Shown piece after piece: positions 1,495-23,086 of a DNA stretch of 37,259 bases. The DNA is from an uncultured Bdellovibrionales bacterium (GTDB lineage: Bacteria; Patescibacteriota; Minisyncoccia; Moranbacterales; UBA2206): the NCBI GenBank assembly GCA_964516165.1, contig CAZEYB010000002.1, positions 1-37,259 on the forward strand. Reading direction: 5' to 3'. Positions within the stretch are counted from its first letter, which is position 1, and each line of letters begins with the position of its first letter. Both the position numbers and the translations under genes were made by a program. Under the pieces are notes generated by a model that was given only the letters and a program-made list of their open reading frames with translations, was not told where the DNA came from and searched no databases.

Positions 1495-2025
1495 TTACTT
1501 AACAGCTTTTATAATTAATTCCATTTCTGGAATATAAGATCTGCTTATTGGCATTCTCAAATTTTCTTCCGAAAATCGCTTACCAGTATCTGCAAAGCCC
1601 AGCTTTTTATAAAAATTAATCGCTTTTGTGTTATATGTAGCAACTCGTACGATAATATCTTTCTTGTTTCCAATGACTTCCGCCACTCTATTCCAAAACA
1701 TTTTGCCAATTCCCCTTCTCTGATATTTTGGCAATACATATATGGCCTGCAGCTGATCGTAATATTCCTTTTTCACTATTTTGCATACGCCCACAACAAG
1801 CGCTCCGTCTTTAGCCACTAAAAAAAGTTTGTTTTCTGATTCATCAAAAATATCGTCCATTCTTTTTTGAATGGCTTGTTTAGAAAATCTGTTTTTAAAT
1901 TTCTCTTCAATATCTTCAGTTGTAACGCCAGCATTTTCATTTGGATATGTAGCAAGCCAAGTTTCATAGAAAACTTTTTGAATATTTCTTACATCCTTAA
2001 TGGCAGGTTTTTCTATACTAATCAT
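1495..2025 (-). CDS. GNAT family N-acetyltransferase
   Basis: 176-aa ORF carrying the acetyl-CoA binding motif A, QLQAIYVLPKYQRRGIGKMFW (Q/R-x-x-G-x-G/A). Confidence 0.85.
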   Translation of the reverse strand: MISIEKPAIKDVRNIQKVFYETWLATYPNENAGVTTEDIEEKFKNRFSKQAIQKRMDDIFDESENKLFLVAKDGALVVGVCKIVKKEYYDQLQAIYVLPKYQRRGIGKMFWNRVAEVIGNKKDIIVRVATYNTKAINFYKKLGFADTGKRFSEENLRMPISRSYIPEMELIIKAVK

Positions 2026-2206: not shown

Positions 2207-3835
2207 TCACCACAACAATTCTTCTTTAAACTTTTCCAGCTCCTTAATCATTTCCGCTGTTTCCGGCGTAGTCTCATTTGGATCAAATTTTAATATTTCT
2301 TCAAGTTCGCACCACCTTAGATTTTCCTTTTCAGTTTGTCCGGTAAATTTTTCCGTAAGACAATAATCTATCATAGCAACATAAATAAAATCGCGATGAA
2401 AGTGAGCGGGCATTTCGCCCGGAGACAGTATTTTCTCCAATTTTTCATCAAAAATAACAGGAAATGACAGCCATTTTTTAAAATTCTTATCAAACCAATA
2501 AATAGGAACTATGCCAAGCTCTTCTTCCAATTCTCTCAAAACGGCGCTTTCAGGAGATTCAAATCTTTCTACATGTCCGCCTATAGGTATCCATTTTTTA
2601 ATTTTCGGATGATTCAAAAGCAAAATTGATATTTTTCCATCGGGATTTTTGCTTAATATTAAAGCGCTGGCGGCATCGTGCCGTTCGTTTCTTATTTTTT
2701 CTATTTGAAGTATTCTTTTATAATTATCCACCTCATAAAATTCAAAATATTTTCTCACAATTTCCTGTTGCAATCTTAATTCCAAATCATAAACCCTCGA
2801 TAATAAATTCGATTCCAACAGATAATCGGAAGCTATGAGAAGGCTGGACATAATAATATCAAAAATTTCCCCAAAAGAAGAATCATCGATAAAATTTATC
2901 GGAAATCCATTATAAGCGATATAAAAAAGGCCATTTTCTGATTTATAAGAATTTATATAATCATTTTTGCTGATAATATTTCCTTCCAATTCCTTAACTG
3001 GAAATTCTATTTGTTTTGATGAGGCGCTGACTAATAACGCATTATTTTTTAAATAAACAATATCGCTTAATTGCAACGATCTTTGTCCTGAAGCCCCAAT
3101 AATTATATCCGCCTGAGCAATAGCCGAAATTCTGTCGGTAATGCTAAAACCGTCTAATCTTGCCAGCATTATATTCACCGGATCACTGTCATAAACAAAA
3201 ACATTGGCCAGGGTGCTTTTAAGCATCCGGGCTGTTCCGCAACCAATTTCTCCATATCCCATAACTAGAACATTTTTTACTGTAATCAAATCTCTGTGAA
3301 AATAATCCCTTAAAAATTTTTCCAAGGAATAGCTAACCGACGAGCCTACAAACTTGTTTTCAATTTTTTTCAGGTTGGTCTGGGCAATACTAATCACGGG
3401 AAAATTAAGCCTTGATTCATTTTTTTTGAAATTCCAGTGTCCCTGGTTTGTATCTTCAATGGCGCCAACTATATTGTTAGGAATATCTTTTGCTAAACTG
3501 GAATATCCGCCTATTTCAACCATACAAATTTTTTTATCCGGGTTTTTATCGCAAATATCAGTTATGAGATCGGGTATTTCAGATACATCACCCGGACAAT
3601 AAACTTTGGCATATTTACTAATATTTTCTTTAACTTCCGGCATTTCCGAATAAGGAATGGATATTACGCCCACATTTTTGAAATTTTTTAACCAACTCTC
3701 GATATAAACTTCTATTGTTCCGGTAAGATGAATAACAAAAAGAAAATACACATCTCTTTTTTTTATCCGATTTGAATAATATTTGAAAACAAGATCTTTT
3801 GAATCTCCGCTGGTTTTTTTATTTAACTCAAGCAT
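2207..3835 (-). CDS. fusion protein: divergent S-adenosylhomocysteine-hydrolase-like domain (N-terminal ~370 aa) plus NUDIX hydrolase domain (C-terminal ~150 aa)
   Basis: The SAHH-type NAD domain VLVMGYGEIGCGTARMLKSTLANVFVYDSDPVNIMLARLDGF compares with canonical VVVAGYGDVGKGCAQAL..V.ITEIDPINALQAAMEGY. Upstream blocks follow the SAHH substrate-domain order: FLFVIHLTGTIEVYIES, MVEIGGYSS, AIEDTNQG and FPVISIAQTNLKKIENKF. The Nudix box is GGHVERFESPESAVLRELEEELGI (G-x5-E-x7-REUxEExGU). Confidence 0.7.
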   Translation of the reverse strand: MLELNKKTSGDSKDLVFKYYSNRIKKRDVYFLFVIHLTGTIEVYIESWLKNFKNVGVISIPYSEMPEVKENISKYAKVYCPGDVSEIPDLITDICDKNPDKKICMVEIGGYSSLAKDIPNNIVGAIEDTNQGHWNFKKNESRLNFPVISIAQTNLKKIENKFVGSSVSYSLEKFLRDYFHRDLITVKNVLVMGYGEIGCGTARMLKSTLANVFVYDSDPVNIMLARLDGFSITDRISAIAQADIIIGASGQRSLQLSDIVYLKNNALLVSASSKQIEFPVKELEGNIISKNDYINSYKSENGLFYIAYNGFPINFIDDSSFGEIFDIIMSSLLIASDYLLESNLLSRVYDLELRLQQEIVRKYFEFYEVDNYKRILQIEKIRNERHDAASALILSKNPDGKISILLLNHPKIKKWIPIGGHVERFESPESAVLRELEEELGIVPIYWFDKNFKKWLSFPVIFDEKLEKILSPGEMPAHFHRDFIYVAMIDYCLTEKFTGQTEKENLRWCELEEILKFDPNETTPETAEMIKELEKFKEELLW

Positions 3836-3887
3836 AAATAATTAATTTAAAAAATGCTTTGTTTTAATAACCTAATAAAAATTGAAG

Positions 3888-6743
3888 CTAAGGCTTCAAT
3901 TTTTCACTAATTATCGCTATTGAAAAAATTTCTTCCCCGAATTTAAACTCTTTTTTCAAATCCATTTCGGGCAATTCGCCCGCTTCCACGCTTCCGGCCA
4001 AAGTTTCCTTCGCGATCAAACATCCAAACTTGGTGAAAACATCATCCGCGCCGACATAACCAATTTTGATGTGATTATCAACTTCGTAACCCGCTTCTTT
4101 GCGCATTTCCTGGATATAACGGATAATCTCCCGCGCTTGTCCTTCCAATTTCAGTTCGGATGTGATTTCAGTGTTTAACTCGACTTTATTTTCTGATCCG
4201 CTTTTGAAGATAACATTTTTGACATTAACTTCTTCTTTCATAATTTCCATGAAATCTTCTTGCTTTTCATAATTTGTAATTATCAATTCGGAAAGCGGTT
4301 GCCTGACCCTAATCCCATTCTTCGCGCGCAATTGCAAAGCTTCCGTAATAATATTTCTCGTATCGTCCATTTTTTCATTTAGATCCTCGTTAATCAATTT
4401 CTCATCGGCCGCGGGAAAATCAGCCAGATGCACCGAATCGTCATTCGTCAAGTTCTTATAAATTTCTTCCGCGATAAATGGAGTAAACGGCGCCATAATC
4501 TTTGACAATTCAATTAAAACGCAATGTAAAGTCTGGTAAGCCGCCTTTTTGTCATCATCATCCTCCGACTTCCAAAACCTTTTGCGGCTGCGGCGAATGT
4601 ACCAATTGGAAAGGTTGTCCACGAATACGGGAAGAAGCCGGGCCGCTTTGTAAAGCTCATAGTTTTCCATGTGGGCGTTAAACTCTTTTATGAGTCCGTG
4701 AAGTTCCGAGACAATCCATTTGTCCAGAATATTTTTGAGAGTTTTCAGATCAAAATCCTTGGCTGGCGTGAATTTATCGATGTTCGCGTAAAGCGCGAAA
4801 AAAGAATAACTATTCCAAAGCATGCGGAACATGCCTTTGAAAATTGTTTCCAGATCCCTATCTGAAAAATTCAAATTATCACCCTCCATCAAAGTTGATT
4901 GCATCAAATAGAATCTGAACGCGTCAGCCCCATAGCGGTTAACCAAGATATTGGGATCGGTGAAATTCCCCAAAGACTTCGACATTTTCTTGCCGTCATT
5001 TCCAGCGATAGTTCCGGTAGCGATAACATTTAAAAAGCTTGGTTTTTCAAAAAGTCCCACCGATAAAACATGCAACGTATAAAACCAGCCTCTGGTTTGA
5101 GCGGTATACTCGGATATAAATTGAGCCGGAAATCTCTTCTCGAATAATTCTTTATTTTCAAAAGGATAGTGCAACTCGGCAAAGGGCATGGAACCTGATT
5201 CCACCCAGCAGTCAAAAACATCCGGGATTCTTTTAGAATTTCCCCCGCACTTATCGCATTTGAAAACAATTTCGTCTATAAAAGGCCTGTGGTAATCATC
5301 AAGTTTCTTTCCCGCCAGCCCTTCCAGTTCTTCATACGAACCGACGACTTTTATTTCTCCGCACGCTTCGCACACCCAGATAGGAATCGGCGTCCCCCAA
5401 TATCGGGAACGCGAGACATTCCAATCGGGGGCGGTCTCCAAACCATTTTTAAATCGGCCTTCCTTAAGATGCCCGGGATGCCAATTTATCTTTTCATTCT
5501 GTTCAAGCAGTTTCTTTTTTAATTGGGAAACTTTAATAAACCAGGCGGGCTGAACTTTGTAGATTAATTTCGCGTCACAGCGATAACAATGCGGATAAGA
5601 GTGGATTATATTTTCTTTTTTAAACAAGCATCCGCTGTCCCGCAGAAATCCGACAATTTTAAAATTAGCCTCCCAAACGTTCACGCCCTTCCATTCTCCT
5701 TCCGTGAATTTTCCTTCTTCATCAACATTTTCTATCATAGGCAAATTACTTTCTTTTCCCGCCCGGAAATCGTCTTCGCCGAAAGCCGGCGCCATATGGA
5801 CGATCCCGGTTCCATCCTCGGCGGTCACAAAATCGCCATTAATCACTCTGTAACCATTTTTAATTTCACGCGGGAAGATTGGCTCATATTCAAGACCGGC
5901 TAATTCCTCTCCCTTCGCCTCTTCCTCAATTTCATATTCATCTTTAATGACTTCCAGCCGCTCTTTGGCAATAAAATATTTATCCTTTCCGATTTTCACT
6001 TTGGCATAAATCATTTTCTCGCCCACAGCCAAAGCGACATTGGCCAGCAATGTCCACGGCGTAGTGGTCCAAACAAGAAAATAGGTATTTTCCTTACCCT
6101 TTAATTTCATCTTTACATACACCGAAACATCCTTATCATCCTTAAAAGAGTTATCCATCGCGATTTCAAAATTGGAAAGCGGCGTGGAGCAACGCGGACA
6201 ATAAAGAGAAATTCTGGAATCTTTATAGGCCAATCCTTTTTTGTAAAGTTCCTTAAAGCCCCACCAGACAGACTCCATATAAGTAGAATCCATCGTTTTA
6301 TAGGAATTATCAAAATCCACCCAGCGGCCGATTCTTTTCACCGTTTTTCTCCACTCGTCGGCGAATTTAAGAACCATATTTCTGGCTTCCATGTTGAATT
6401 TCCCGATATTTTCCTCAATTTCTTTTTTGCTGTCATATCCCAGCTTTTGTTCCACCTTATTTTCGATTGGCAAACCATGCGTGTCCCAGCCCCAACGGCG
6501 AGGAACATTATATCCCTTCATGGTCCAATATCTTGGGACAACGTCTTTTGATATAGATGCCAGCAAATGGCCATGATGAGGCAATCCGGTCGCGAACGGC
6601 GGACCGTCGTAAAAAACATAAAGGGGCGCCTCTTCCCTGTTCTTCAAAGACTTTTCAAAAATTTTATTTTCTTCCCAAAATTTAAGAATTTCCTCTTCCA
6701 TTTGAGGGAAATTTCTGTTAAAATCGACTTTCTTGAATTTCAT
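3888..6743 (-). CDS. ileS: isoleucine--tRNA ligase, type 2 (eukaryote/archaea-like form)
   Basis: Motifs: FYDGPPFATGLPHHGHLL (HIGH region of type-2 IleRS), KMSKS (GKKMSKSLGN), and CP1 editing and zinc-type Cys motifs. I place the start at MKFKKVDF (ATG 6743). The 29 upstream codons in the ORF track overlap the T-box leader. Confidence 0.95.
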   Translation of the reverse strand: MKFKKVDFNRNFPQMEEEILKFWEENKIFEKSLKNREEAPLYVFYDGPPFATGLPHHGHLLASISKDVVPRYWTMKGYNVPRRWGWDTHGLPIENKVEQKLGYDSKKEIEENIGKFNMEARNMVLKFADEWRKTVKRIGRWVDFDNSYKTMDSTYMESVWWGFKELYKKGLAYKDSRISLYCPRCSTPLSNFEIAMDNSFKDDKDVSVYVKMKLKGKENTYFLVWTTTPWTLLANVALAVGEKMIYAKVKIGKDKYFIAKERLEVIKDEYEIEEEAKGEELAGLEYEPIFPREIKNGYRVINGDFVTAEDGTGIVHMAPAFGEDDFRAGKESNLPMIENVDEEGKFTEGEWKGVNVWEANFKIVGFLRDSGCLFKKENIIHSYPHCYRCDAKLIYKVQPAWFIKVSQLKKKLLEQNEKINWHPGHLKEGRFKNGLETAPDWNVSRSRYWGTPIPIWVCEACGEIKVVGSYEELEGLAGKKLDDYHRPFIDEIVFKCDKCGGNSKRIPDVFDCWVESGSMPFAELHYPFENKELFEKRFPAQFISEYTAQTRGWFYTLHVLSVGLFEKPSFLNVIATGTIAGNDGKKMSKSLGNFTDPNILVNRYGADAFRFYLMQSTLMEGDNLNFSDRDLETIFKGMFRMLWNSYSFFALYANIDKFTPAKDFDLKTLKNILDKWIVSELHGLIKEFNAHMENYELYKAARLLPVFVDNLSNWYIRRSRKRFWKSEDDDDKKAAYQTLHCVLIELSKIMAPFTPFIAEEIYKNLTNDDSVHLADFPAADEKLINEDLNEKMDDTRNIITEALQLRAKNGIRVRQPLSELIITNYEKQEDFMEIMKEEVNVKNVIFKSGSENKVELNTEITSELKLEGQAREIIRYIQEMRKEAGYEVDNHIKIGYVGADDVFTKFGCLIAKETLAGSVEAGELPEMDLKKEFKFGEEIFSIAIISEKLKP

Positions 6744-6745
6744 AA

Positions 6746-6900
6746 TTTGAACTATTAAACATAAAAAAACGCCTCTTCGGCATAAGGACGTCTTAAGACG
6801 TGGTACCACCTTAATTCTCCAGCCAGCCAAAACCGACAGGACTCTAAGGGCTATAACGGGCTCACCCGGCAGGTTCTATTTTGTTTCAGAAATTTCAACA
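6746..6900 (-). promoter_or_regulatory. T-box leader (tRNA-sensing riboswitch) upstream of ileS
   Basis: The minus-strand RNA contains AAUUAAGGUGGUACCACG (plus-strand positions ~6799-6816). This matches the T-box consensus AANNNGGGUGGNACCGCG at 16 of 18 positions. UGGU would pair with an ACCA tRNA 3' end having an A73 discriminator. It is followed by hairpins and GGCGUUUUUUU just before the ATG. Confidence 0.7.
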
Positions 6901-7097: not shown

Positions 7098-8102
7098 ATG
7101 AAACCGGGATTTAAACTTCCCTTGGTTAACGCGCATACTCACGCGGCCATGATCGCTTTCCGCGGAATGGCGGAAGATCTCCCCCTGCGAAAGTGGTTAA
7201 ATGAGTGCGTTTGGCCGGCTGAAAAAAAATACGTAAACTCCGGCTTTGTATATGAAAAAACCAAAGAAGCTGTTTTGGAAATGAAAAAAAACGGAATCAG
7301 AGTCTTTTCAGACATGTATTTTTTTGAAGACCGAGTGGCCGAAGCGGCCAAAGAGCTCGGAATAAACGCGGTTGTTGGCGAGGGCATATTGGATTTTCCG
7401 ACACCCGGAGCAAAAACTCCCGAAGAAGCGTTTGAAATTACCGAAAAACTGCTGATCAAATATCCCGACGACCCGCTGATAAAAGTAGCGGTCGCTCCGC
7501 ATTCGATTTACGCGGTTTCGGAAAAAAATTTAATCAGAGCCAAGGGATTAGCTCAAAAATACCACGCTTTGTTTCACATTCACTTGGCTGAAACAAAAAC
7601 TGAATTTGACGAATGTCTGAAAAAAAACGGCTTAACCCCGACGGCTTATTTGAACAAGCTGGGAATTCTTGATGAAAAGTCCGTCCTGGCCCATTGCGTT
7701 TGGACAACGGATGCCGACATTGATATTCTAGCCGAAAAAAAAGCGAATGTGATTCATTGTCCTTTGAGCAATCTGAAACTAGGCTCGGGAATCGCGCCTC
7801 TAGGAAAAATGCTTGAAAGAAAAATTAATGTTTGTCTCGGGACAGACGGAGCCGCCAGTTCAAACAGGCTGGATATCTGGGAAGCCGGAAAATTCGCGGC
7901 TCTTATCCAAAAAGGGACAACTCTTGATTCAAGCAAAATTTCAACCAGAGATATCGCGAAGATGATGACAATAAACGGCCTTAAAGCCTTGGGCTTTTCT
8001 GAAATTGACGGCAGGAAAGTATCGGATATGGAAGAAGAAATAGAAAAAGGAAACTACAACTTCCTTTACGAATTAAACTCAAACGAGGTGGTTTTTAAAT
8101 AG
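7098..8102 (+). CDS. amidohydrolase-fold nucleoside deaminase, MtaD/DadD-like (5'-methylthioadenosine / S-adenosylhomocysteine / 5'-deoxyadenosine deaminase family), short form
   Basis: Motifs: LVNAHTHAAMIAFRGMAEDLPLRKWL (HxH), HIHLAETKTE (HxxE), LAHCVW and CLGTDGAASSNRLDIWE (metal Asp). At 334 aa, against ~430 typical, it starts directly at the HxH strand and so lacks the usual N-terminal beta-sandwich segment. Confidence 0.7.
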   Translation: MKPGFKLPLVNAHTHAAMIAFRGMAEDLPLRKWLNECVWPAEKKYVNSGFVYEKTKEAVLEMKKNGIRVFSDMYFFEDRVAEAAKELGINAVVGEGILDFPTPGAKTPEEAFEITEKLLIKYPDDPLIKVAVAPHSIYAVSEKNLIRAKGLAQKYHALFHIHLAETKTEFDECLKKNGLTPTAYLNKLGILDEKSVLAHCVWTTDADIDILAEKKANVIHCPLSNLKLGSGIAPLGKMLERKINVCLGTDGAASSNRLDIWEAGKFAALIQKGTTLDSSKISTRDIAKMMTINGLKALGFSEIDGRKVSDMEEEIEKGNYNFLYELNSNEVVFK

Positions 8103-8105
8103 ACG

Positions 8106-9236
8106 CTAAAAAGCTTCTTTTTTTCTGCCGTATAAAAACGCGTTCTTTTCGCCAAAACTGGGAATCATTTCGTCTTTTCGGGAAATATCCTTAAAACTTT
8201 TTTTAAGAATTTTTTCAAGGATAGAAACGGCGTCTAAACGCTTAGACGTTACTTTGGAAGCTCCCGCTTGCAGACTTATCCAGCCATTGTCATTCAAAGC
8301 GTCTTTGGATAAACCGATTATTTCTTTGTAAAATTTCCTAAAATCTTTCCGATCTTTTTTACGGACCGGATCATCCGTTAAATCGCAAACAATCCCATCG
8401 AATTTTCCATTCTTGTTAATAGTGTTCTTCAAATAATGAAAAGCGTCTTCAATATACAGCTGGACTCTGGGGTCTTTAAATATTCTCTGATCCAGATATT
8501 TTTCACATCCCTTGCATACCTCGACATCCAAATCGATAATCTTGATTTTTAAACTTGGATTTATTTTGAGCGCCATTTCGGCCACATAGCCATCCCCGCC
8601 TCCAAGTATCAATAACTTTTTGTCTGTTTTGCGCAACTTTTTCAATATGGCTTTGTCATAAACTTCATGATCCATTTCGGCAGTTTGCATTATGCCGTCA
8701 ATTACCAGACAGCGCCTGAAATCGGAAGTATCCAAAAATAAAATATCCTGAAAATCAGATTTGATTTTACCGATGATATTCTTCACTTTGATTCTCATTT
8801 CTTCTCCGGTGCTAAAAATCGGAATAGCCAGCTCGCATTTATCATTAATGATTTTCTGAAAATTAAAAAATTTATAACCGCGTTCGAGTTCCTTTATTTC
8901 GACTTTTTTGTGAAAAACCCGGCCTATCAAAAAATCGACCAGTTCTTTGGTTTTTTTGTACGGCGAGCAACTGAAAACATCGCAAGCCGCGTAATTATAT
9001 TCCGGCCAGGTATGCACGGAAACATGGGAAGACGCCAATAACAAAAAACCTGTTATTCCATTGGGATCAAAACGATAGAAACTGTCGCCGAGAACCGGCA
9101 AATTGAATTTTTTTGTTCCCCCTTTCAGTATATCTTTCCAGAAATTCATGTCGTCAATTTGCTTTTCATCGCAACCAAAAAACTCAATCAGAAAATGCAC
9201 TCCGTCAGGATGGCTGTTTTTGAGTATTTTTTTCAT
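8106..9236 (-). CDS. bifunctional S-adenosylmethionine decarboxylase (pyruvoyl, SpeH/SpeD class 1) / spermidine-synthase-like aminopropyltransferase fusion
   Basis: N-terminal region: GFLLLASSHVSVHTWPEYNYAACDVFSC (AdoMetDC processing and active-site region). C-terminal region: LLILGGGDGYVAEMALK..IKIIDLDVEV..DGIVCDLTD (SpeE-type SAM-fold motifs). The track's start at 9281 is a GTG. I prefer ATG 9236 (MKKILKN), which is preceded by GAAGG. Confidence 0.8.
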   Translation of the reverse strand: MKKILKNSHPDGVHFLIEFFGCDEKQIDDMNFWKDILKGGTKKFNLPVLGDSFYRFDPNGITGFLLLASSHVSVHTWPEYNYAACDVFSCSPYKKTKELVDFLIGRVFHKKVEIKELERGYKFFNFQKIINDKCELAIPIFSTGEEMRIKVKNIIGKIKSDFQDILFLDTSDFRRCLVIDGIMQTAEMDHEVYDKAILKKLRKTDKKLLILGGGDGYVAEMALKINPSLKIKIIDLDVEVCKGCEKYLDQRIFKDPRVQLYIEDAFHYLKNTINKNGKFDGIVCDLTDDPVRKKDRKDFRKFYKEIIGLSKDALNDNGWISLQAGASKVTSKRLDAVSILEKILKKSFKDISRKDEMIPSFGEKNAFLYGRKKEAF

Positions 9237-9348
9237 AAAAACCTTCGCGGTTATTTTATGCTTCGTATTTAATGATAGCACAGAATCGCAAATCCTGGTA
9301 GAAATAATGAGCTTCCTGAATTCAAACCCCGAAGCCTCTTTTTTTCTA

Positions 9349-9827: not shown

Positions 9828-10457
9828 TTACTTCCTAGCAACAACTACCCAATTTACTCTGTCATTTAAATCCAACCTTAAACTGCTAAATTCAGAAAAT
9901 ATCTTTTCGATTTCTTCTTTATCAAAAAAGCTATGAGCCAAACCAGTTTCCGGTCCTGACAATGGAGAAAATGTTCCTTCTGCCAATTTTTTATTATTTT
10001 TAAATGTGTCCCAACTTTTAATATTGCTTATATCAGGCAAGGTAATGAAAACAAAACCACCAGGTAAAAGTGAATTATAAATTTTATTAATCAATTCACT
10101 GATATCTTTTTTTAAACCGTGATGGATGGAAGAAATTGAAAATACTAAATCATACGTATTGAATGGATAATCATATTTATAAATATCGGCATAAATTAGA
10201 TTGGCCCTGGATCCCAAAACTTTCCTGCTCATTTCTATGGCAGTTTCACTGGAATCGATACCATTTATTTCAAATCCTAGTTTTTGCAAATAAGCTAAAT
10301 AGCGACCATTACCGCAACCAATATCTAAAACATTCTTAGCAATAAAATTAGTATTTTTTACAAACTCCAAAAACTCTGGAAGCAAATCATACTTCAGACT
10401 TCCCCAAGGTTTTCCATCTTTCTTATAACTCTTGTATATTTTGTCCCAAATGGTCAT
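9828..10457 (-). CDS. class I SAM-dependent methyltransferase
   Basis: Motif I is VLDIGCGNGRYLAYL, followed by the acidic post-I residue (INGIDSS) and YDLVFSISSIHH. Substrate unknown. Confidence 0.85.
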   Translation of the reverse strand: MTIWDKIYKSYKKDGKPWGSLKYDLLPEFLEFVKNTNFIAKNVLDIGCGNGRYLAYLQKLGFEINGIDSSETAIEMSRKVLGSRANLIYADIYKYDYPFNTYDLVFSISSIHHGLKKDISELINKIYNSLLPGGFVFITLPDISNIKSWDTFKNNKKLAEGTFSPLSGPETGLAHSFFDKEEIEKIFSEFSSLRLDLNDRVNWVVVARK

Positions 10458-10638
10458 ACAAAATATTGTAGCAAATTATCAAATAAAAAACACTCTCTCG
10501 TGGAATGTTTCTTAAATTTGCACGGAACGCTAGATAACCTTCGGACAAATATACTGGAAAATTGGGAGTCGGTTGAGAATAATTTAGAGCGTGTAAAAGC
10601 TTTACTAAGACAAATTTAGGTAAAATATTATAAAAAAA

Positions 10639-10959
10639 TTACTTCCAAGTTCTTTTTTTGTTTATTTCCTCTTTTGCCCTAAAGGCCTGTTCCAAGTCGA
10701 TATCAAATCGATTGGCTATCGCGAAAAGATAAATCATAATATCCACTAACTCTTCGTCAACAGACCCGAACTTTGAATTATGATCAACTTTGAGCACTTT
10801 GTTTTTTTTCCTAATGGCCTTGAATAATTCCCCCACTTCCTCCGTCAAAAGCAAACACTTTGGAATAACTCCTTCTTTTTCAAAACCTCGTTCGATTTCC
10901 AGATCCTTAACGTATTCCTGAAAATCTTTTAAAATTGGCTGCTCTTTTAAAGTTGGCAT
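10639..10959 (-). CDS. MazG-like nucleoside triphosphate pyrophosphohydrolase (single-domain, 106 aa)
   Basis: LLLTEEVGELFKAIRK and VDEELVDIMIYLFAIANRFDIDLEQAF give the E-x-x-E ... E-x-x-D four-helix MazG motif arrangement. Confidence 0.8.
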   Translation of the reverse strand: MPTLKEQPILKDFQEYVKDLEIERGFEKEGVIPKCLLLTEEVGELFKAIRKKNKVLKVDHNSKFGSVDEELVDIMIYLFAIANRFDIDLEQAFRAKEEINKKRTWK

Positions 10960-12177: not shown

Positions 12178-12187
12178 AATTTGCCAG

Positions 12188-12260
12188 CACCGAGTACGGG
12201 AATCGAACCCGTGTTGCGAGAATGAGAATCTCGCGTCCTGAACCACTAGACGAACTCGGC
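12188..12260 (-). tRNA. tRNA-Glu (anticodon CUC), no encoded CCA
   Basis: The minus strand reads GCCGAGUUCGUCUAGUGGUUCAGGACGCGAGAUUCUCAUUCUCGCAACACGGGUUCGAUUCCCGUACUCGGUG. The D-arm UCGUCUAGUGGUUCAGGAC is typical of tRNA-Glu. The anticodon stem is CGAGA/UCUCG with loop UUCUCAU. The T-arm is ACGGG-UUCGAUU-CCCGU. Position 1-72 would be a G.U pair. Confidence 0.85.
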
Positions 12261-12390: not shown

Positions 12391-14496
12391 ATGTCAAGAA
12401 GTCGATCGGACAAAAAAATTTCCTATCTTGATTCCAGCTTCAAGGATATTTTGGTATGCAAAAAAAATGAGCGCCGGCCTTACATGGAAATTTTCATCCA
12501 AGAACCGGAAAATATCGGGGAGCAAAGCTTGGGAACTATCGCGGGAATTTTGGAAATTGTCGATGATTCCGAAGATTCCTCTTACATAGTCAATTACCTC
12601 ATTTCAATAATCAAAAAAGAATATTTTTCCAAAGTCAAACGAGGAGCCATTGAAAGCCTGGAAGGAGCTCTGCATAAAGTTAATTTGGCTTTGGCCAAGC
12701 TGGCCCAGCACGGAAATATCAATTGGATCGGAAAATTTAACGCTATCGTGCTGGTTATTGAAAAAAATAATATCCACTTGTCGCAAACCGGAAGCGCTAA
12801 AGCTTTGATGCTTAGAAAAAAGATTCTCACGGATATCAGCGAAAGCGCTCCATCAGGCGAAGAGCCTAATCCGCTCAAAACCTTTATCGACGTGCTCTCC
12901 GGAAGACTAGAGAATAATGACAAACTGATAATAACCACGGACAGCATCTTTGATATATTTTCTTTTGAAGAGATAAAAAGAAGCGCCCTTAAATTTTCTT
13001 CTTCCGATTTTATCCAGTTTCTGAAAACGGCTCTGGGAAACGAACTGGAAAAAGCGATGGTCCTGATAGTGGAAACTCAAGAAAAAAACAGAACAGTACT
13101 TCAGCCGGACGGAAAAACTAAAACTAAACTCAACGCTTTCAGCCAAACAACCTTTTCCAAAGTTTCCCGGAGAGCTTCGGTCCAGGAAGGAAAACGAAAA
13201 ATCGCCGAAGAACTCAAAGACGAACTCAAAAAAAGCCGCGGCGAATTTGTCGACCAAAAAACCGGGCATATCTATATAAAGGAGGACCGTTTCCTGAAAG
13301 AAGAGAAACGGGATTTATCCTTGCAGAGCATAACCGGCTTCTTATCCCAATTGATAAAATGGCCGAAAATATCTTTAAGAAGCCGGAAAAATTTGGAACG
13401 GGCTATCGTAGCTCGAGCGGAAGAAAAATTATTAGGCAGAGAAGAAATGCCAAAAGGCCTTTGGAATTCTATAAAAATCGGCTCCGAAAAAATTTATTTT
13501 ACGTTAATAAGGCTATTATCAAAAGTCCGCGGAATCGCTTTAAAAATCATGCCCCGAATTTCCCGGCTGAAAAACATAATTTCCGGATTGGATTATTCCC
13601 AAAAGCTTTATGCCGCCCTGGCGGTGATACTGCTTTTCATAGTTCCTTATTTCATCGTAAAAATCCAGAACAAGAGCGAAAACAGCGATTCAGTTTCGCC
13701 CGAAGCAACGGCTCCCGTTTTCGCGCCGCTGGAACAAGATAAAAATGTTTCTGTTATCACCGACTTAAGCCATGCCTATTCCGGCAGCGACATCATGGGA
13801 ATCGCGAATCTAAAAGACAGTTTTTTTACCGTAAGCCGGACAAAAATAACCGATCCAAAGAATAACAAAAGCTACCCGATGCCGGAAAACTTCATTCCGG
13901 CAAAAATAGCCGGCATGGATGACTTAAACCTGCTGTTTCTTCTGGGTGAAAATAATTCGCTTTTGAGCTGGAGCCCGCTTTCCGGAAAATTTCAGGAAAA
14001 TCAGCTGGTTATTCCGGAAAACTCCGCGTCGGTTTCCTTAAAAACTTACCTGACTTACCTTTATTTTCTGGATTCCAAAAATAATCAGATTTATCGTTAT
14101 CCGAGAGCGGAAGGCGGTTTTGGCGCCGGCGTCAATTGGATAAAAGAAAACATTGATCTTTCCCAAACTAAAGACCTAGCGGTCAGTGAGAACATTTATA
14201 TAGCCGGTCCCGGCCAAATTATCAAGCTTTACCGCGGCAAGAAACAGGATTTCGCCATAGAAAATACCGCCACGCCGATTAAAGCGGATAAGATTTATAC
14301 CATAAGAGACGGGCAATATATTTATGTTATGGATCAGACCAACGCCCGAATTATCAAACTAGACTTAAACGGCGCCATCGTTTCCCAATATTACAACGCC
14401 GAAATTAAAAACGCCGCGGATTTTACCGTGGACGAAACCGCGAACTTAATCTACTTTTCCACTTCCGACAGCGTAAAGAGTTTTGGGATTAATTAA
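12391..14496 (+). CDS. hypothetical membrane protein: ~400-aa cytoplasmic N-terminal region, one TM helix, ~280-aa C-terminal repeat-like extracytoplasmic domain
   Basis: 701-aa ORF with GGGGGT 10 nt upstream of the ATG. The TM segment is LYAALAVILLFIVPYFIV. The C-terminal part has recurring motifs (NQIYRYPRAEGGFG, QIIKLYRGK, ARIIKLDLNG, LIYFSTSD) suggestive of a beta-propeller. No function motif recognised. Confidence 0.6.
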   Translation: MSRSRSDKKISYLDSSFKDILVCKKNERRPYMEIFIQEPENIGEQSLGTIAGILEIVDDSEDSSYIVNYLISIIKKEYFSKVKRGAIESLEGALHKVNLALAKLAQHGNINWIGKFNAIVLVIEKNNIHLSQTGSAKALMLRKKILTDISESAPSGEEPNPLKTFIDVLSGRLENNDKLIITTDSIFDIFSFEEIKRSALKFSSSDFIQFLKTALGNELEKAMVLIVETQEKNRTVLQPDGKTKTKLNAFSQTTFSKVSRRASVQEGKRKIAEELKDELKKSRGEFVDQKTGHIYIKEDRFLKEEKRDLSLQSITGFLSQLIKWPKISLRSRKNLERAIVARAEEKLLGREEMPKGLWNSIKIGSEKIYFTLIRLLSKVRGIALKIMPRISRLKNIISGLDYSQKLYAALAVILLFIVPYFIVKIQNKSENSDSVSPEATAPVFAPLEQDKNVSVITDLSHAYSGSDIMGIANLKDSFFTVSRTKITDPKNNKSYPMPENFIPAKIAGMDDLNLLFLLGENNSLLSWSPLSGKFQENQLVIPENSASVSLKTYLTYLYFLDSKNNQIYRYPRAEGGFGAGVNWIKENIDLSQTKDLAVSENIYIAGPGQIIKLYRGKKQDFAIENTATPIKADKIYTIRDGQYIYVMDQTNARIIKLDLNGAIVSQYYNAEIKNAADFTVDETANLIYFSTSDSVKSFGIN

Positions 14497-14589
14497 AGAA
14501 ATTATCAAGACTGAACCTTGATAGACAGAGCACCTTGATAGAATTTAGAAAATCTATTGCAACAATGCCAAAATGGATAACTTTCTACA

Positions 14590-15591
14590 TTAATTGGATT
14601 GCCGTAATTTATTTGTAATTATTTTATCAACATTCCTATCAAAACAGTAGTTGCCCTTACTATATGTCCATTCGTTATCATTTTCGTTATACGGATATCC
14701 CGACTCATCCGTTTTATAATCAGTACTCGCTCGCTTGAAATCCGCACATAATTTGTAACTAGTAACCCCAACCTTCTTATATATTATTAGTTTGGTTATT
14801 GTTTTGTTAAAGTAATAATCATTCTTTTTTAAATCATCTAGAGAGGAAGGCAACATTGAATTTTCTTTGTAATAATCTGAGATCTGATTTTCTATCATTC
14901 TAAGGTTGGAAACGGTTTGCTGGTCTATTTTCTTATCTCGGCTGGCAAAAGGACTATCAATAATGGTAAATCCCATAACAATGCTTCCTAACGCAACTAG
15001 TATGACTATTCCAGCTAAAATTTTATTTGTCGAATTTATACTCCCGACCATATTCTTCTTTTTTATATCAATCAGATAATAGAAGAAAATTGATCCGGCT
15101 ATCGCTAAAACTACTACCGTTTTCAAAATAAATCTAGCCACAATGTCCCCGCTAAGCATGTTATAAACAAGCGATATCAAATCGCCTAAAATAGTACCAG
15201 CAGTAAGAAATAATATAATATAAGTCAGCCATTTTCTAATTTTAGAGTCTTCCGATATTTTTCCTTCATATAAATATTTATTAATCAAATAAGCCAGAGC
15301 AAGATAAACTGGAGTAGCGATAATAAGAGACGCAATGCCGTATTTAACAGCACCTTGGTAAAAATAGCCAATATAATCGTATTCCAAAGCGGAAGTGTCT
15401 GAAATATTTTTGTTTATTATTTGGAATAATATTGCTCCTACGCCTGTACTGAAAGAACATAAAGAAAGAAAAGATACTAAATAAAGAAAGAAATGCATGG
15501 CAGGATTTTTAGACTCATTAGCGTTGGAAATAGGTTGAGGTGATGGTTGTTGATTATAATTTATCTGACTTTGATTGTCTTGATTTTCCAT
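14590..15591 (-). CDS. hypothetical multi-pass membrane protein (Q/N-rich N-terminus, 5-6 TM helices, Cys-containing C-terminal domain)
   Basis: 333-aa ORF. The hydrophobic segments are clear, for example FFLYLVSFLSLCSFSTGVGAILF and ILAGIVILVALGSIVMGFTII. It resembles the membrane proteins annotated as DUF5671 in CPR genomes; that comparison is from memory and unverified. Confidence 0.6.
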   Translation of the reverse strand: MENQDNQSQINYNQQPSPQPISNANESKNPAMHFFLYLVSFLSLCSFSTGVGAILFQIINKNISDTSALEYDYIGYFYQGAVKYGIASLIIATPVYLALAYLINKYLYEGKISEDSKIRKWLTYIILFLTAGTILGDLISLVYNMLSGDIVARFILKTVVVLAIAGSIFFYYLIDIKKKNMVGSINSTNKILAGIVILVALGSIVMGFTIIDSPFASRDKKIDQQTVSNLRMIENQISDYYKENSMLPSSLDDLKKNDYYFNKTITKLIIYKKVGVTSYKLCADFKRASTDYKTDESGYPYNENDNEWTYSKGNYCFDRNVDKIITNKLRQSN

Positions 15592-20514: not shown

Positions 20515-22983
20515 TCAAGCAGCCATTTTTTGTTCAACTTTTTCCGCGGCAATGGAAGCATCCACATTCCTGGCCAGCCATTGCCTGACCGTTTCTCCTT
20601 TTTTGTGCTTAGCTCCGATTCCTAAAAGCGCGATAAAATCTTTTTCCAGATTCTCGATATTTTTGGCCAACTTCGGACTAAGCGGGTTGTCTTTTCTTTT
20701 CAGACTTTCAAATTCAACGTTCTTCATTATAGACCAATTTTCCAAACTGCCTAGAGATATTTTCTTTATAGTTTTTTTGGCCCGGGAGAAGAAACTGTCT
20801 TTCTTATCAAACTCGTATTTTTTGGCTAATTTTTTAAATTCTCCGTACTTCATCAAATCAATCACCTTGGCTTTTTTTATTTCGGCTAGTTTTTTTGTTC
20901 CGATCGTTCCCGCTCCGACTGCCACTGCTCCGCCAATCACTTCTTTGCCCGATAACGATTCCACGGAAAGATCTTCGGTTTTCAACTCTTCGGCTATTTT
21001 AACGGCAGCATCTTCAGTTTTCAACTCTTCGACTATTTTACCGGTAGCGTCTTCGGTTTTATTCGCCTCAAAATCTTCGGCTATTTTACCGGCAGCGTCC
21101 TCGGCTTTCAACTCTTCGGCTGCTTTATCAACAGCATTCTCCGGTTTTAACGTTTCAGCTGTTTTATCAATAGTATCTACTGCTTTCAGTTCCTCGGTTA
21201 TATCGCTAGTTGCTATTTTTTGATCCCCGATCCATTCAGAACCCGGCGCGCTATCTTGAAAACCAATAACGCTTTTTCCGTCCGGACTAAGTTCTATGCA
21301 CGCTCCCGGATGGACTAAATTAAATCCCTTTTTGGTTAGGTCGGGATGATCTTTAATAAAATCAAGATACATCCGGTGGGCTAACCAGCCAGATTGACCC
21401 TTTCCCGTCCCTTTTTCTACTCCATGAGATTCTAAATATTTAATAATCGAGCCCTGAAAACTACCGCCTCTGCCTTTTTCAACCGTTAAATCAATATTTT
21501 TTGAAATTTCGGTAAATTTTTCTATCGGAACTTCCTCGGCAGACGGAGCTTCTTCGGCAAACGGAACTTCTGCGGCAGATGGAGCTTCTTCGGCAGACGG
21601 AACTTCCGCAACAGGCGGAACTTCCGGAGCGGGAATATTTTCCGGAGAAGTTTCGGCTATGTCCGGAATCATGTTCTCCTGATTGGGTTTCGGATTGTCG
21701 TAATCAAAATTTTCAGTCGGTATTTTCTCCTCCACTGATCCTGCTGGAACTTCAGCCGATCCGAAATAATGCCCGAATCCAGTTTTCGTCAGATAGGATA
21801 CAGCGCCTGATCCAACCGCTATTCCAAAACCAGCGCCGATAAACCTTCTGTTCAGAGCTTTCCTCTTTTCTCTTTCCAAACTTTGTTTATAAGTATCCAC
21901 TTCAGATCTAAGTTTTTCCATAATCGCTTCAAAGCGTTCATTGACATCAATATCTTCAAAATCCTTAAGCATTTCTTCTTTTTCTTTTTTTGACTTCCGG
22001 CTGTCCAGTTTTCTGCGAAATCCTTCCTGGATAGCCACAGCGCCTGCTCCCCCAGCCGCTCCGCCCATAATCCTCTGTCCGATTTTTCCCGCCGAAATAA
22101 AAGCCATAAGCCCGGCGGCGCCGGAAATTCCGGCCGTGGCCGCGAATCCCGCTCCCACTCCGCCAGCCAGCAGAACGCCTGAAAAAGCCAATTTATACTT
22201 CAGCGGCAGTTTGCGATACCAATTGACAATTTGGGAACTTTTTTCCCACAATTTATGACTCCACTGATCTTTTCTCGCTTCTGTTCTGGCGTTAGTTCTA
22301 GCTTCGTATAAATTAGTTTTCTCGACATTATTGAAATAGATTATCAATTCTCCCATTTCCCGCTTAAGATCGCTGGGATCCATCTTGGAACTTTTTAAAG
22401 CCTCAATTTTGGCATCGAGATAATTATTAAGCGAGTTTTTATATTCCTTATAAAGATAGCTTTCATCCGCTACGTCTTTGGAAGTAGTTTTCATTCCCAC
22501 CCCCAAAAAACCCTTGAGACGAGTAATCGCGTTAGAGAGTTCGTAATCTTTTCTGGCATAATCGCCTCGAGTTCTTTCTATTTCCTGTCTTATTTTTTTT
22601 AGTTCCGGAGTTTCTCCCATTTCGACTAAATCCGTGAGTTCAATTATTTCATCCTCCTTCTCTATCTTCGGTTCATCTATTTTCAGTTCATCTATTTTCG
22701 GTTTATATGTTTCTACAAATTCATCCAATTTATCCAGTTTAATCGGTTTTTCCCTTCGCCCGTTTTCATATCCGCTGTCGAATATAATCGCCTCCCCGGT
22801 TTTAGGATCATAAGAATTGACATATATCCAATCGGAACTCGAGTTGCCGTCTTTAAATATATTCACCTTAAGAATATCGCCGTATTTTTGTTTGAATTCA
22901 TCATAAGAAAATTTTCCCGAAGGTCCTACTCGGCTGATTTCACTGCCAGTTTCATCCGTAAGCGTGTTCCCTTTCTCTTCCAT
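20515..22983 (-). CDS. large hypothetical membrane protein with Gly/Ala-rich TM segments and two internal tandem-repeat tracts
   Basis: 822 aa from ATG 22983 (MEEKGNT); the track's 23022 start is a TTG. Gly-zipper-like hydrophobic segments are LAFSGVLLAGGVGAGFAATAGISGAAGLMAF, GGAAGGAGAVAI and IGAGFGIAVGSGAV. The repeats are AEVPSAEEAPSA and TEDAAxKIAEELK. Confidence 0.6.
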   Translation of the reverse strand: MEEKGNTLTDETGSEISRVGPSGKFSYDEFKQKYGDILKVNIFKDGNSSSDWIYVNSYDPKTGEAIIFDSGYENGRREKPIKLDKLDEFVETYKPKIDELKIDEPKIEKEDEIIELTDLVEMGETPELKKIRQEIERTRGDYARKDYELSNAITRLKGFLGVGMKTTSKDVADESYLYKEYKNSLNNYLDAKIEALKSSKMDPSDLKREMGELIIYFNNVEKTNLYEARTNARTEARKDQWSHKLWEKSSQIVNWYRKLPLKYKLAFSGVLLAGGVGAGFAATAGISGAAGLMAFISAGKIGQRIMGGAAGGAGAVAIQEGFRRKLDSRKSKKEKEEMLKDFEDIDVNERFEAIMEKLRSEVDTYKQSLEREKRKALNRRFIGAGFGIAVGSGAVSYLTKTGFGHYFGSAEVPAGSVEEKIPTENFDYDNPKPNQENMIPDIAETSPENIPAPEVPPVAEVPSAEEAPSAAEVPFAEEAPSAEEVPIEKFTEISKNIDLTVEKGRGGSFQGSIIKYLESHGVEKGTGKGQSGWLAHRMYLDFIKDHPDLTKKGFNLVHPGACIELSPDGKSVIGFQDSAPGSEWIGDQKIATSDITEELKAVDTIDKTAETLKPENAVDKAAEELKAEDAAGKIAEDFEANKTEDATGKIVEELKTEDAAVKIAEELKTEDLSVESLSGKEVIGGAVAVGAGTIGTKKLAEIKKAKVIDLMKYGEFKKLAKKYEFDKKDSFFSRAKKTIKKISLGSLENWSIMKNVEFESLKRKDNPLSPKLAKNIENLEKDFIALLGIGAKHKKGETVRQWLARNVDASIAAEKVEQKMAA
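20971..21210. repeat. in-frame tandem repeat, ~39-nt unit, about 6 copies (13-aa unit ..EDAAGKIAEELKT..)
   Basis: Units start near 20971, 21010, 21049 (48 nt), 21097, 21136 and 21175. They lie inside CDS 20515-22983. Confidence 0.75.
21528..21632. repeat. in-frame tandem repeat, 36-nt unit, about 3 copies (AEVPSAEEAPSA)
   Basis: GGAACTTCCTCGGCAGACGGAGCTTCTTCGGCAAAC and two degenerate copies, inside CDS 20515-22983. Confidence 0.75.
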
Positions 22984-23086
22984 ATAAAACCAAGTTATAT
23001 TTATGATTTTATTATACAACAAAAACCGCCTTTTAACTATCCGCTGGCATGTGGATAAGCTAATTCTGTGGTATAATCAATTCGCC

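Follow-up and report, generated by a model that had tools for sequence, protein, structure and literature searches.

A divergent S-adenosylhomocysteine hydrolase-like family joined to a NUDIX hydrolase in a Moranbacterales genome and paired with related NUDIX proteins elsewhere

We analyzed a stretch of 37,259 nucleotides (hereafter, the window) from an uncultured bacterium placed by GTDB in Moranbacterales (Patescibacteriota; GenBank assembly GCA_964516165.1, contig CAZEYB010000002.1, positions 1 to 37,259 of the forward strand), and in particular one gene on its reverse strand that encodes a protein of two domains (Table 1). The N-terminal 366 residues belong to a large uncharacterised family descended from the fold of S-adenosylhomocysteine (SAH) hydrolase (SAHH), the C-terminal 156 residues constitute a NUDIX pyrophosphohydrolase with an intact catalytic box, and the gene encodes a single bifunctional protein. 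The family extends over bacteria and archaea and has a NUDIX partner of its own; it represents a large functional branch of the SAHH fold that has so far gone unrecognised. An earlier note, made by a model from the letters of the window without database searches, had pointed out the fusion and was not aware of a characterised one; the literature that we searched contained no account of an SAHH-NUDIX fusion or of the family, and its SAHH-like hits concerned mainly AHCYL1/IRBIT, AgmF and archaeal SAHH.

The assignment of the N-terminal part was obtained from sequence profiles and from a predicted structure, both of which recovered the SAHH-type domain claimed in the earlier note as a complete two-lobe fold (residues ~14–366). 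The Pfam model AdoHcyase_NAD (PF00670) matched residues 183–290 (E 4e-15, 56.7 bits, over the gathering score), and the NCBIfam adenosylhomocysteinase models aligned to residues 115–362. The best match of a phmmer search against the PDB was the Thermotoga maritima SAHH (3x2e, E 1e-20, residues 83–363), and a profile of the family aligned with solved SAHHs over nearly their full length, from the N-lobe onward (E 3e-36). An AlphaFold2 model built from 27 homologues had a mean predicted local distance difference test (pLDDT) score of 88, with weaker values in the first 10 residues and in the 367–386 linker, and the order of its secondary structure elements agreed with that of SAHH. When this model was compared with the PDB using Foldseek, the top 50 structures were all hydrolases of SAH or S-inosylhomocysteine (SIH), with both lobes covered and template-modelling scores of ~0.7 over 375–398 columns (range 0.57–0.74 when normalised to target length). 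Moreover, the NAD-domain block that the note had read from the sequence is present as GYGEIGCG...VYDSDPVNIMLARLDGF (residues 193–231). A generic 2-hydroxyacid or alanine dehydrogenase Rossmann domain, the possibility on which the fusion claim might have failed, was rejected: the 2-Hacid_dh_C model scored 20.3 bits, under its cut-off of 25.1 and well short of the 56.7 bits of AdoHcyase_NAD, and no non-SAHH structure appeared in the top 50. The protein also stayed far below the equivalog cut-offs for true SAHH (NF004005, 86.9 bits versus 275; TIGR00936, 77.6 versus 497.6).

We then mapped the active site onto human AHCY (reference sequence identical to PDB 1li4 chain A at 432/432 residues) by aligning the family profile using hhalign, and aligned it to archaeal and Thermotoga SAHHs (7r39, 3x2e) for the N-lobe. 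The result divides the site into two parts. The NAD site is kept, as is most of what may be called the redox half, which comprises Lys156, Glu159/Asn160, Glu127/Asp128 and His36. In the pair that holds the ribose diol in SAHH, Glu156 is replaced conservatively by Asp128, and Asp190 by Asn160, next to which stands the invariant Glu159; Thr157 is retained as Thr129. In contrast, the hydrolase half is gone: Asp131 has become Ile, the His301-Phe302 pair, described as a 'molecular gate' of SAHH (PMC10978960), has become Ser-Lys, and both His353 and the NAD-clamping C-terminal tail have been lost. The Asp130 position is occupied by Glu107. The reading of DDGGD as EIGGY in the note was correct (residues 107–111), as was its reading of GHFDxEI as SASSKQIEF, in which His301 aligns with Ser273. 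Its third substitution was misplaced, since NGFPINF aligns with EGRLVNL and the counterpart of the GHP region is DDSSFGE; there, His353 aligns to Ser320 (phmmer) or to Glu323 (hhalign), two registers that differ, and neither gives a His. The tail of SAHH that carries Lys426 and Tyr430 and reaches the NAD of the neighbouring subunit is absent, as the fold stops near residue 366 and is followed by the linker and the NUDIX domain. Several SAHH catalytic positions are replaced, as the note had seen, namely Asp131, His301 and His353; Lys186 and His55 are retained.

The nucleobase signature also differs. HxTxE/Q has been described as the signature of SAH-preferring and HxExK as that of SIH-preferring hydrolases (PMC10978960); HLTGT fits neither, and the family consensus at this place is H-x-L-x-D. 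On the basis of the active-site residues, the nucleobase signature and the hidden Markov model cut-offs, we rejected a true SAHH or SIH hydrolase. The proposal in the note of a salvage enzyme for deaminated SAH was not borne out for similar reasons, as HLTGT matches neither signature, Asp131, the His301-Phe302 gate and His353 are absent, and the deaminase neighbour seen in the window is not conserved in other Moranbacteria loci.

Table 1. Coordinates of the fusion gene, its domains and motifs, and an adjacent RNA hairpin; residues are those of the 542-residue protein, and positions are those of the window.
Feature	Residues	Positions	Strand	Remarks
SAHH-like/NUDIX fusion gene, whole		2207..3835	(-)	ATG 3835, TGA 2207-2209; 542 aa; unbroken open reading frame
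Substrate-binding (catalytic) lobe	14-178	3302..3796	(-)	Family-profile alignment, order in AlphaFold2 model, Foldseek over both lobes
HLTGT	36-40	3716..3730	(-)	Counterpart of SAHH nucleobase signature HxTxE/Q; His36 = human His55
IPYSE	60-64	3644..3658	(-)	Family-specific loop; S63 = Ser83 of the SAHH 'STQD' loop
VEIGGY	106-111	3503..3520	(-)	Counterpart of LDDGGD; Asp131 -> Ile108, Asp134 -> Tyr111
EDTNQGHW	127-134	3434..3457	(-)	Counterpart of EETTTG; E155 = E127, Glu156 -> Asp128 (hhalign)
KKIEN	156-160	3356..3370	(-)	Lys156 = catalytic Lys186; Asn160 at Asp190 position; Glu159 family-invariant
NAD-binding Rossmann domain	183-316	2888..3289	(-)	Pfam PF00670
GYGEIGCG	193-200	3236-3259	(-)	In Rossmann domain
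VYDSDP		3179-3196	(-)	Asp216 = Glu243 counterpart
SASSKQIEF	270-278	3002..3028	(-)	Replaces NIGHFDVEI; Gly300-His301-Phe302 -> Ser272-Ser273-Lys274
GFPINF	310-315	2891..2908	(-)	Counterpart of GRLVNL; Asn314 = NAD-contacting Asn346
DDSSFGE	317-323	2867..2887	(-)	Counterpart of GHP loop, without His353
Return helices of SAHH fold	324-366	2738..2866	(-)	hhalign stops at ~human residue 400; model helices 322-341 and 353-366
Linker between domains	367-386	2678..2737	(-)	Helix 372-383; pLDDT 56-76
NUDIX domain	387-542	2210..2677	(-)	Pfam PF00293 at 387-529, E 3e-13, 50.2 bits vs cut-off 21.1
Nudix box GHVERFESPESAVLRELEEELGI	420-442	2510..2578	(-)	Exact fit to GX5EX7REUXEEXGU (regular expression and translation)
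HFHRD	478-482	2390..2404	(-)	HxHxD motif; with GGH, marks the partner NUDIX clade
Probable terminator: hairpin and U-tract over ileS stop codon		3876..3904	(-)	RNA fold: 12-bp stem, dG -12.5 kcal/mol, z -2.46

When 1.84 billion cluster representatives were searched exhaustively with a profile, 5,187 relatives emerged, including 1,666 at E ≤ 1e-30. The top 150 each scored above 246 bits, and most were standalone proteins of ~375 aa. We measured conservation over 149 of these representatives, sharing no more than 50% identity. Lys156, Glu159 and Glu127 were each conserved at 99%. The NAD-site residues stood at 100% (G195), 99% (G198), 98% (D216) and 97% (N314, followed by F315 at 91%), and further conserved positions were H36 (93%, with positions 38 and 40 variable), Y62 (85%), S63 (96%), T129 (97%) and Y111 (91%). 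Position 108 was hydrophobic in ~92% and Asp in just 4%, whereas at position 160 Asp (57%) was commoner than Asn (18%). The residues that handle the 5'-substituent and water in SAHH have given way to a new polar motif, S-x-S-S-K/R-x-x-E-F (S273, 98%; Lys or Arg at position 274, 85%; E277, 99%). In view of this conservation, the active site is remodelled and under selection rather than decayed. Moreover, as the catalytic Lys, the neighbouring acids and the Ser-Ser-Lys/Arg motif are near-invariant in ~150 distant representatives, the pattern argues for a catalytic module rather than a mere binder.

The C-terminal domain exceeded the Pfam NUDIX threshold and its box fits the consensus exactly, in agreement with the complete domain and intact box described in the note. 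None of the named NUDIX subfamilies (MutT, RppH, NudC, ADP-ribose pyrophosphatase and GDP-mannose hydrolase) exceeded its NCBIfam cut-off; the best was MutT, with 24.7 bits versus 97.9, and every match was limited to the Nudix box. The link between SAHH-like and NUDIX parts recurs in four independent ARRANGEMENTS: C-terminal fusion as in the window (16 homologues), N-terminal fusion (P0147, P0163, P0172, P0175 and P0185), a pair of abutting or overlapping genes (loci L007-L009, L021 and L041), and a NUDIX gene one gene away (L027 and L042). The partner NUDIX domains, whether fused or encoded in the operon, all match each other, and GGH and HxH(xD) are invariant in their alignment. Because all of them hit one another and share GGH and HxHxD, the partner represents one specific uncharacterised clade. 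The best PDB matches to a profile of this clade were 3fcm and 3f6a (Clostridium perfringens) and 1jrk/1k2e (Pyrobaculum aerophilum), at E values from 7e-32 to 3e-24. In P0172 and P0175, the Nudix box is degenerate (e.g. RHLTWRL or KRLLKGFG for REUxEExGU) and GGH and HxHxD are retained; the partner NUDIX domain of certain lineages may act as a binder instead of a hydrolase.

Two further observations concern this domain. In a 308-aa protein from a Logan contig (P0024), a NUDIX domain that shares 65% identity with that in the window is fused to a toxin domain of the AbiEii nucleotidyltransferase type. As an AbiEii gene immediately precedes a complete fusion gene in another locus (L011, 475–1083), P0024 may have arisen by a deletion that removed the SAHH-like part. 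A 507-aa protein upstream of a standalone partner NUDIX gene (L013) was considered as a cryptic SAHH-like domain and rejected, as it had neither similarity nor a Pfam hit.

The fusion in the window is one continuous frame of 542 codons, exactly as the note had delimited it. A chimera created by a sequencing frameshift was rejected, since the open reading frame (ORF) is continuous, and 16 homologues from independent assemblies, at 42–79% identity, have the same order and length, each in a single ORF; split and reversed arrangements were found elsewhere. The nearest named homologue, a protein from a metagenome-assembled genome (MAG) of Candidatus Moraniibacteriota, is annotated merely as 'NUDIX domain-containing protein'.

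The survey of distribution that the note had called for was carried out, and places the family across bacteria and archaea. We scanned one genome per species and obtained 30 loci, in which ORFs were simple longest-ORF calls. The hosts include lineages of the candidate phyla radiation (CPR; Moranbacteria and Levybacteria), DPANN archaea (Nanohalobium and Micrarchaeota), Chlamydiae, Verrucomicrobia, Chloroflexi, Actinomycetes (Kibdelosporangium and Conexibacter), Bacteroidota (Tenacibaculum), Clostridia, Nitrospira and several Proteobacteria. The members of one branch, each ~411 aa long, hardly differ in sequence between Nitrospira, Beta-, Gamma-, Alpha- and Deltaproteobacteria, Blastocatellia and Chloroflexi (L024, L025, L032-L034 and L038-L040). 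Their genes adjoin those for a transposase, for nucleases of the EEP family or for a 1673-aa TcA-like toxin (L033), or a gene resembling pPIWI/Argonaute-associated nucleases, which suggests that the branch is horizontally mobile. A phage origin of the family was rejected, as the search of viral contigs returned no relatives. In a Parachlamydiales MAG (L044, 5935–7199) and a Holophagales MAG (L046, 5653–7138), the SAHH-like gene lies in four consecutive ORF pieces, which are pseudogenes or assembly frameshifts.

Apart from NUDIX, several other partners recurred in the 30-locus scan. An adenylate kinase gene lies immediately upstream of the SAHH-like gene, often overlapping it, in 7/30 species-level loci, a guanylate kinase gene occurs in a Clostridia MAG (L042), HIT proteins are encoded near 8 loci, and HD phosphohydrolases adjoin 3. 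Two proteins (P0075 and P0080) bear a fused N-terminal extension with a Walker-A match only, so that the name 'kinase' is unproven for them. In Chlamydiae and relatives (L022, L023, L027, L029 and L035), the gene lies in a cluster with the order EamA transporter, HIT, a pyridoxal phosphate (PLP) enzyme of the cysteine desulfurase family (over the TIGR01977 cut-off), a small ORF, adk-like, SAHH-like and (HIT, NUDIX); the PLP enzyme hints at a tie to sulfur or selenium chemistry in these organisms. Other settings were also seen. In C. tepidiprofundi, the gene is flanked on one side by a gene for a TIM barrel resembling xylose isomerase and on the other by one for a PPDK-like enzyme, and in L012 two distant paralogues (3171–4364 and 5385–6572) flank an FMN oxidoreductase of the Old Yellow Enzyme type, followed by a Cupin_5 gene, a context that is different and possibly secondary-metabolic.

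Within the window, ileS lies upstream of the fusion gene on the same strand, as the note had recognised, and a gene for a GNAT acetyltransferase lies directly downstream (1495–2025, reverse strand). The latter shows a weak likeness to the spermidine/spermine N1-acetyltransferase PaiA (54 bits versus a cut-off of 250). The contrast in AT-richness between the fusion gene and ileS was confirmed, but its size had been overstated (about 22–30% versus 45–52% GC): the measured values are 33.5% (29.5% at third codon positions) and 41.5% (46.0%), respectively, against a window mean of 40.2%. The fusion gene is within the lowest 3% of windows of the same size, and forms a low-GC patch of two genes with the GNAT gene (33.0%). 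The composition of the window is patchy: GC content is also low (30–36%) at 9828–10959 (reverse strand) and 14501–15500, where a class-I methyltransferase, a small pyrophosphohydrolase of the MazG type and a portion of a DUF5671 protein are encoded. The A/U-flanked hairpin with a U-tract at the ileS stop codon suggests that ileS and the fusion gene are transcribed separately, although the hairpin was not among the results of the consensus terminator scan and its designation as a terminator is tentative.

The ileS ORF (3888–6830, reverse strand) was called from a TTG start. As the match to tRNA synthetases starts only at residue 48 and does not take in the first ~30 residues (MAGWRIKVV...), translation more likely begins at an internal Met, that of MKFKKVDF at ~6743. 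Farther along, an ORF at 7098–8102 (forward strand) encodes a 334-aa amidohydrolase of the TRZ/ATZ, MtaD and 5'-deoxyadenosine deaminase group. It covers only model positions ~69–362 of ~440-residue models and falls below every equivalog cut-off, and therefore looks shortened at both ends compared with characterised deaminases. Adjacent to it and convergent, one ORF of 391 aa (8106–9281, reverse strand) combines an S-adenosylmethionine decarboxylase (residues 27–135, over the TIGR03330 cut-off) and a spermidine synthase domain (residues 159–382) in a two-step polyamine fusion (AdoMetDC-SpeE). These two genes are 3–5 kb from the SAHH-like/NUDIX gene. In other Moranbacteria fusion loci the neighbours are different: a CARDB protein with a flippase, AbiEii with a UDP-sugar dehydrogenase, or NUDIX together with HIT. 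We therefore treated the proximity of the deaminase and AdoMetDC-SpeE genes as incidental, and a conserved tie to an MtaD-like deaminase or to ileS was rejected, both being missing from the other fusion loci. Two long ORFs, 12391–14496 (forward strand, 701 aa) and 20515–23022 (reverse strand, 835 aa), had no Pfam matches; a tRNA-Glu(CTC) gene (12187–12260, reverse strand) stands just upstream of the former.

From the retained and the rebuilt residues and from the partners, we propose that the SAHH-like module would be an NAD-dependent enzyme whose target is the ribose of a nucleoside phosphorylated at its 5' position, and that the NUDIX domain would act in concert with it by trimming the phosphate chain; we assign to this general mechanism a probability of roughly 0.45, that is, somewhat below even odds, and far less to any specific product. 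The module would bind the ribose of a nucleotide and oxidise its 3'-OH with NAD, as SAHH does with adenosine. Since the protein lacks the tail with which SAHH locks its NAD in place, such an oxidation might amount to a net dehydrogenation; alternatively, it might be a transient first step that opens the way to elimination or substitution at C4'/C5' in the manner of SAHH and AgmF. The Ser-Ser-Lys/Arg motif, situated where His301 of SAHH contacts O5', could accommodate an anionic 5'-phosphate. The NUDIX domain would set the phosphorylation state, converting a nucleoside triphosphate (NTP) or a nucleoside diphosphate conjugate to the nucleoside monophosphate (NMP), or it would detoxify a triphosphate product; in other lineages, dedicated NMP kinases, HIT proteins and HD phosphohydrolases might perform related phosphate editing. 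The protein would then stand outside the methyl cycle. The suggestion of the earlier note that a nucleoside-binding module is coupled to the cleavage of a nucleoside diphosphate conjugate is possible. A more extended form of our proposal, which we consider unlikely when taken as a whole, makes the family the catalytic core of a widespread unrecognised pathway that would 3'-oxidise a nucleotide rather than a nucleoside and yield a ribose-modified nucleotide (e.g. 3'-keto, 3'-substituted, or 4',5'-didehydro/5'-substituted through 5'-phosphate elimination), its phosphate state edited by the NUDIX clade, NMP kinases, HIT and HD proteins, and its product serving as an antimetabolite, signal or salvage intermediate in host-dependent CPR, DPANN and Chlamydiae.

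Several observations weigh against the proposed mechanism. No nucleotide-enzyme partner is present in 13/30 loci, some of which are in mobile or toxin contexts and several of which belong to the ~411-aa branch, and neither the window nor several other Moranbacteria loci provide an informative operon partner. The seven adenylate-kinase loci are mostly chlamydial and therefore not phylogenetically independent; moreover, this kinase may be the housekeeping adk (TIGR01351, 167.9 versus a cut-off of 168). The boxes of some N-terminal NUDIX partners are degenerate, which means that not every such pairing involves NUDIX catalysis. A role of the Ser-Ser-Lys motif in binding a 5'-phosphate is putative, being read solely from its position in the alignment, and in one CPR lineage, Levybacteria, the standalone homologue sits in an operon of sugar-nucleotide and glycosyltransferase genes.

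This last context raises the possibility that the substrate oxidised by the SAHH-like module is a free or phosphorylated sugar, or the sugar moiety of a nucleoside diphosphate (NDP)-sugar, destined for a cell-surface glycan, with the NUDIX domain hydrolysing the NDP-sugar like the GDP-mannose hydrolases of polysaccharide clusters. In that Levybacteria operon, the SAHH-like gene comes first and is followed by genes for an RmlA-type sugar-1-phosphate nucleotidyltransferase, two successive GT4 proteins and a PIG-L deacetylase; Moranbacteria fusions adjoin a Wzx/MurJ-type flippase and glycosyltransferases, or a UDP-glucose/GDP-mannose dehydrogenase, and the window itself contains GT4 and PMT_2 genes, though 20 kb away. 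However, the sugar-related neighbours are convergent or vary between close relatives, the partners across phyla are nucleotide kinases, HIT, HD and NUDIX proteins with no sugar enzymes, and the retained residues are those that hold the ribose 2',3'-diol in SAHH, which leaves a glycan function distinctly unlikely. A role in conflict, with a ribose-modified nucleotide as a toxin, chain terminator or signal, comparable to viperin-plus-kinase or aminonucleoside pathways, and with NUDIX, HIT and HD proteins for maturation or self-protection, would be a biological variant of the proposed mechanism with the same chemistry. It accords with the ~411-aa branch, near-identical across phyla and beside transposase, nuclease and toxin genes as described above, with the AbiEii gene directly upstream of one fusion, with the two-gene low-GC patch and with the precedent of Pur10/Pur7. 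PADLOC-DB v2 gave as its sole hit a 26-residue match of the Nudix box to PDC-S07, and none for the standalone homologues; as no model there matches the SAHH-like module, a known anti-phage defence system was rejected. Given also the absence of relatives from viral contigs and the metabolic appearance of the Chlamydiae, CPR and DPANN contexts, we judge a conflict role still more doubtful.

The loss of the hydrolase-specific residues is also compatible with a non-catalytic sensor, in which the SAHH-like module would bind adenosine, NAD(H) or a related ligand and regulate the NUDIX domain, in analogy with vertebrate AHCYL1/IRBIT. This explanation fits the earlier idea of a binding module, and some partner NUDIX domains are themselves degenerate. 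However, the catalytic Lys and neighbouring acids are conserved at 99% and accompanied by the new polar motif, most family members are standalone proteins with nothing in cis to regulate, and an IRBIT-type N-terminal extension is missing, all of which make a sensor improbable. Finally, the amidohydrolase and AdoMetDC-SpeE genes in the window, together with the weak likeness of the downstream GNAT to a spermidine acetyltransferase, a pyruvoyl arginine decarboxylase gene near the fusion in L010 and a deoxyhypusine synthase gene at the far edge of L001, would suit a divergent thioether hydrolase of the network of S-adenosylmethionine by-products (SAH, SIH, or methylthioadenosine/methylthioinosine), linked to the MtaD-type deaminase and the spermidine gene. 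Asp131, His301 and His353, which are essential in SAHH and AgmF (PMC8599513), are absent here, neither nucleobase signature is present, the NCBIfam scores of 77–87 bits contrast with cut-offs of 275–498, and the other fusion loci lack the deaminase neighbour; such a hydrolase is therefore very improbable.

To our knowledge, SAH hydrolase is among the most conserved enzymes, and very few cases are documented in which its fold has taken on another function (AgmF, IRBIT). The present family adds at least 1,666 clusters from bacteria and archaea in which the NAD/Lys redox machinery is retained and the substrate site is consistently rebuilt. Automatic annotation names its members 'adenosylhomocysteinase' or 'NUDIX domain-containing protein', and a methyl-cycle step may therefore be wrongly assigned to them when the metabolism of CPR, DPANN and Chlamydiae is reconstructed. 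Once the substrate is identified, the SAHH scaffold would gain a new reaction and the NUDIX clade of 3FCM, 3F6A and 1K2E a function, and a new route of nucleotide modification or salvage could come to light in host-dependent microbes.

Compared with canonical SAHH (3X2E and human AHCY, 1LI4), the window protein shares the two-lobe fold, the NAD Gly motif, the acidic residue after beta-2, Asn346, Lys186, His55 and an acidic pair at the Glu155/Glu156 positions, but it is at most 25% identical, has lost Asp131, the gate, His353, HxTxE/Q and the C-terminal tail, scores far under the equivalog cut-offs, and is fused to NUDIX. The vertebrate AHCYL1/IRBIT proteins also use the SAHH fold beyond SAH hydrolysis. 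They are closely related paralogues of AHCY that have gained a regulatory region at the N terminus, whereas the family described here is remote, prokaryotic and without that extension. On the NUDIX side, 3FCM, 3F6A and 1JRK/1K2E have not only the Nudix box but also GGHxE and HxHxD in common with the partner clade. These proteins are standalone, and their entries name no substrate and carry only the titles 'NUDIX family hydrolase' or 'Nudix homolog'; we therefore transferred no function from them.

Two biosynthetic systems offer precedents for the proposed chemistry. AgmF of the angustmycin pathway is an SAHH-homologous, NAD-dependent dehydratase that acts on the sugar of a nucleoside, binds NAD tightly and rejects SAH (PMC8599513), and provides a precedent for non-hydrolytic NAD-dependent ribose chemistry on the SAHH scaffold. 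However, AgmF keeps the canonical catalytic set, of which H56, D129, K184, D188 and H299 are all essential (PMC8599513), whereas the window protein has Ile108 and Ser273 at D129 and H299; furthermore, AgmF is a close relative of SAHH without a NUDIX partner, whereas the family reported here is remote. In the puromycin, A201A, cystocin and ADG pathways, Pur10, an NAD-dependent ATP dehydrogenase (nucleotide 3'-dehydrogenase), acts with Pur7, a NUDIX pyrophosphatase that converts NTP to NMP, and with phosphatases (PMC11641026). Pur10 is described as RifL-like and not SAHH-like, homology is not implied, and its clusters are actinomycete antibiotic clusters with a sugar aminotransferase. The likeness is thus one of functional analogy: in both systems, NAD-dependent oxidation of a ribose hydroxyl, proposed here and described for Pur10, is paired with a NUDIX enzyme.

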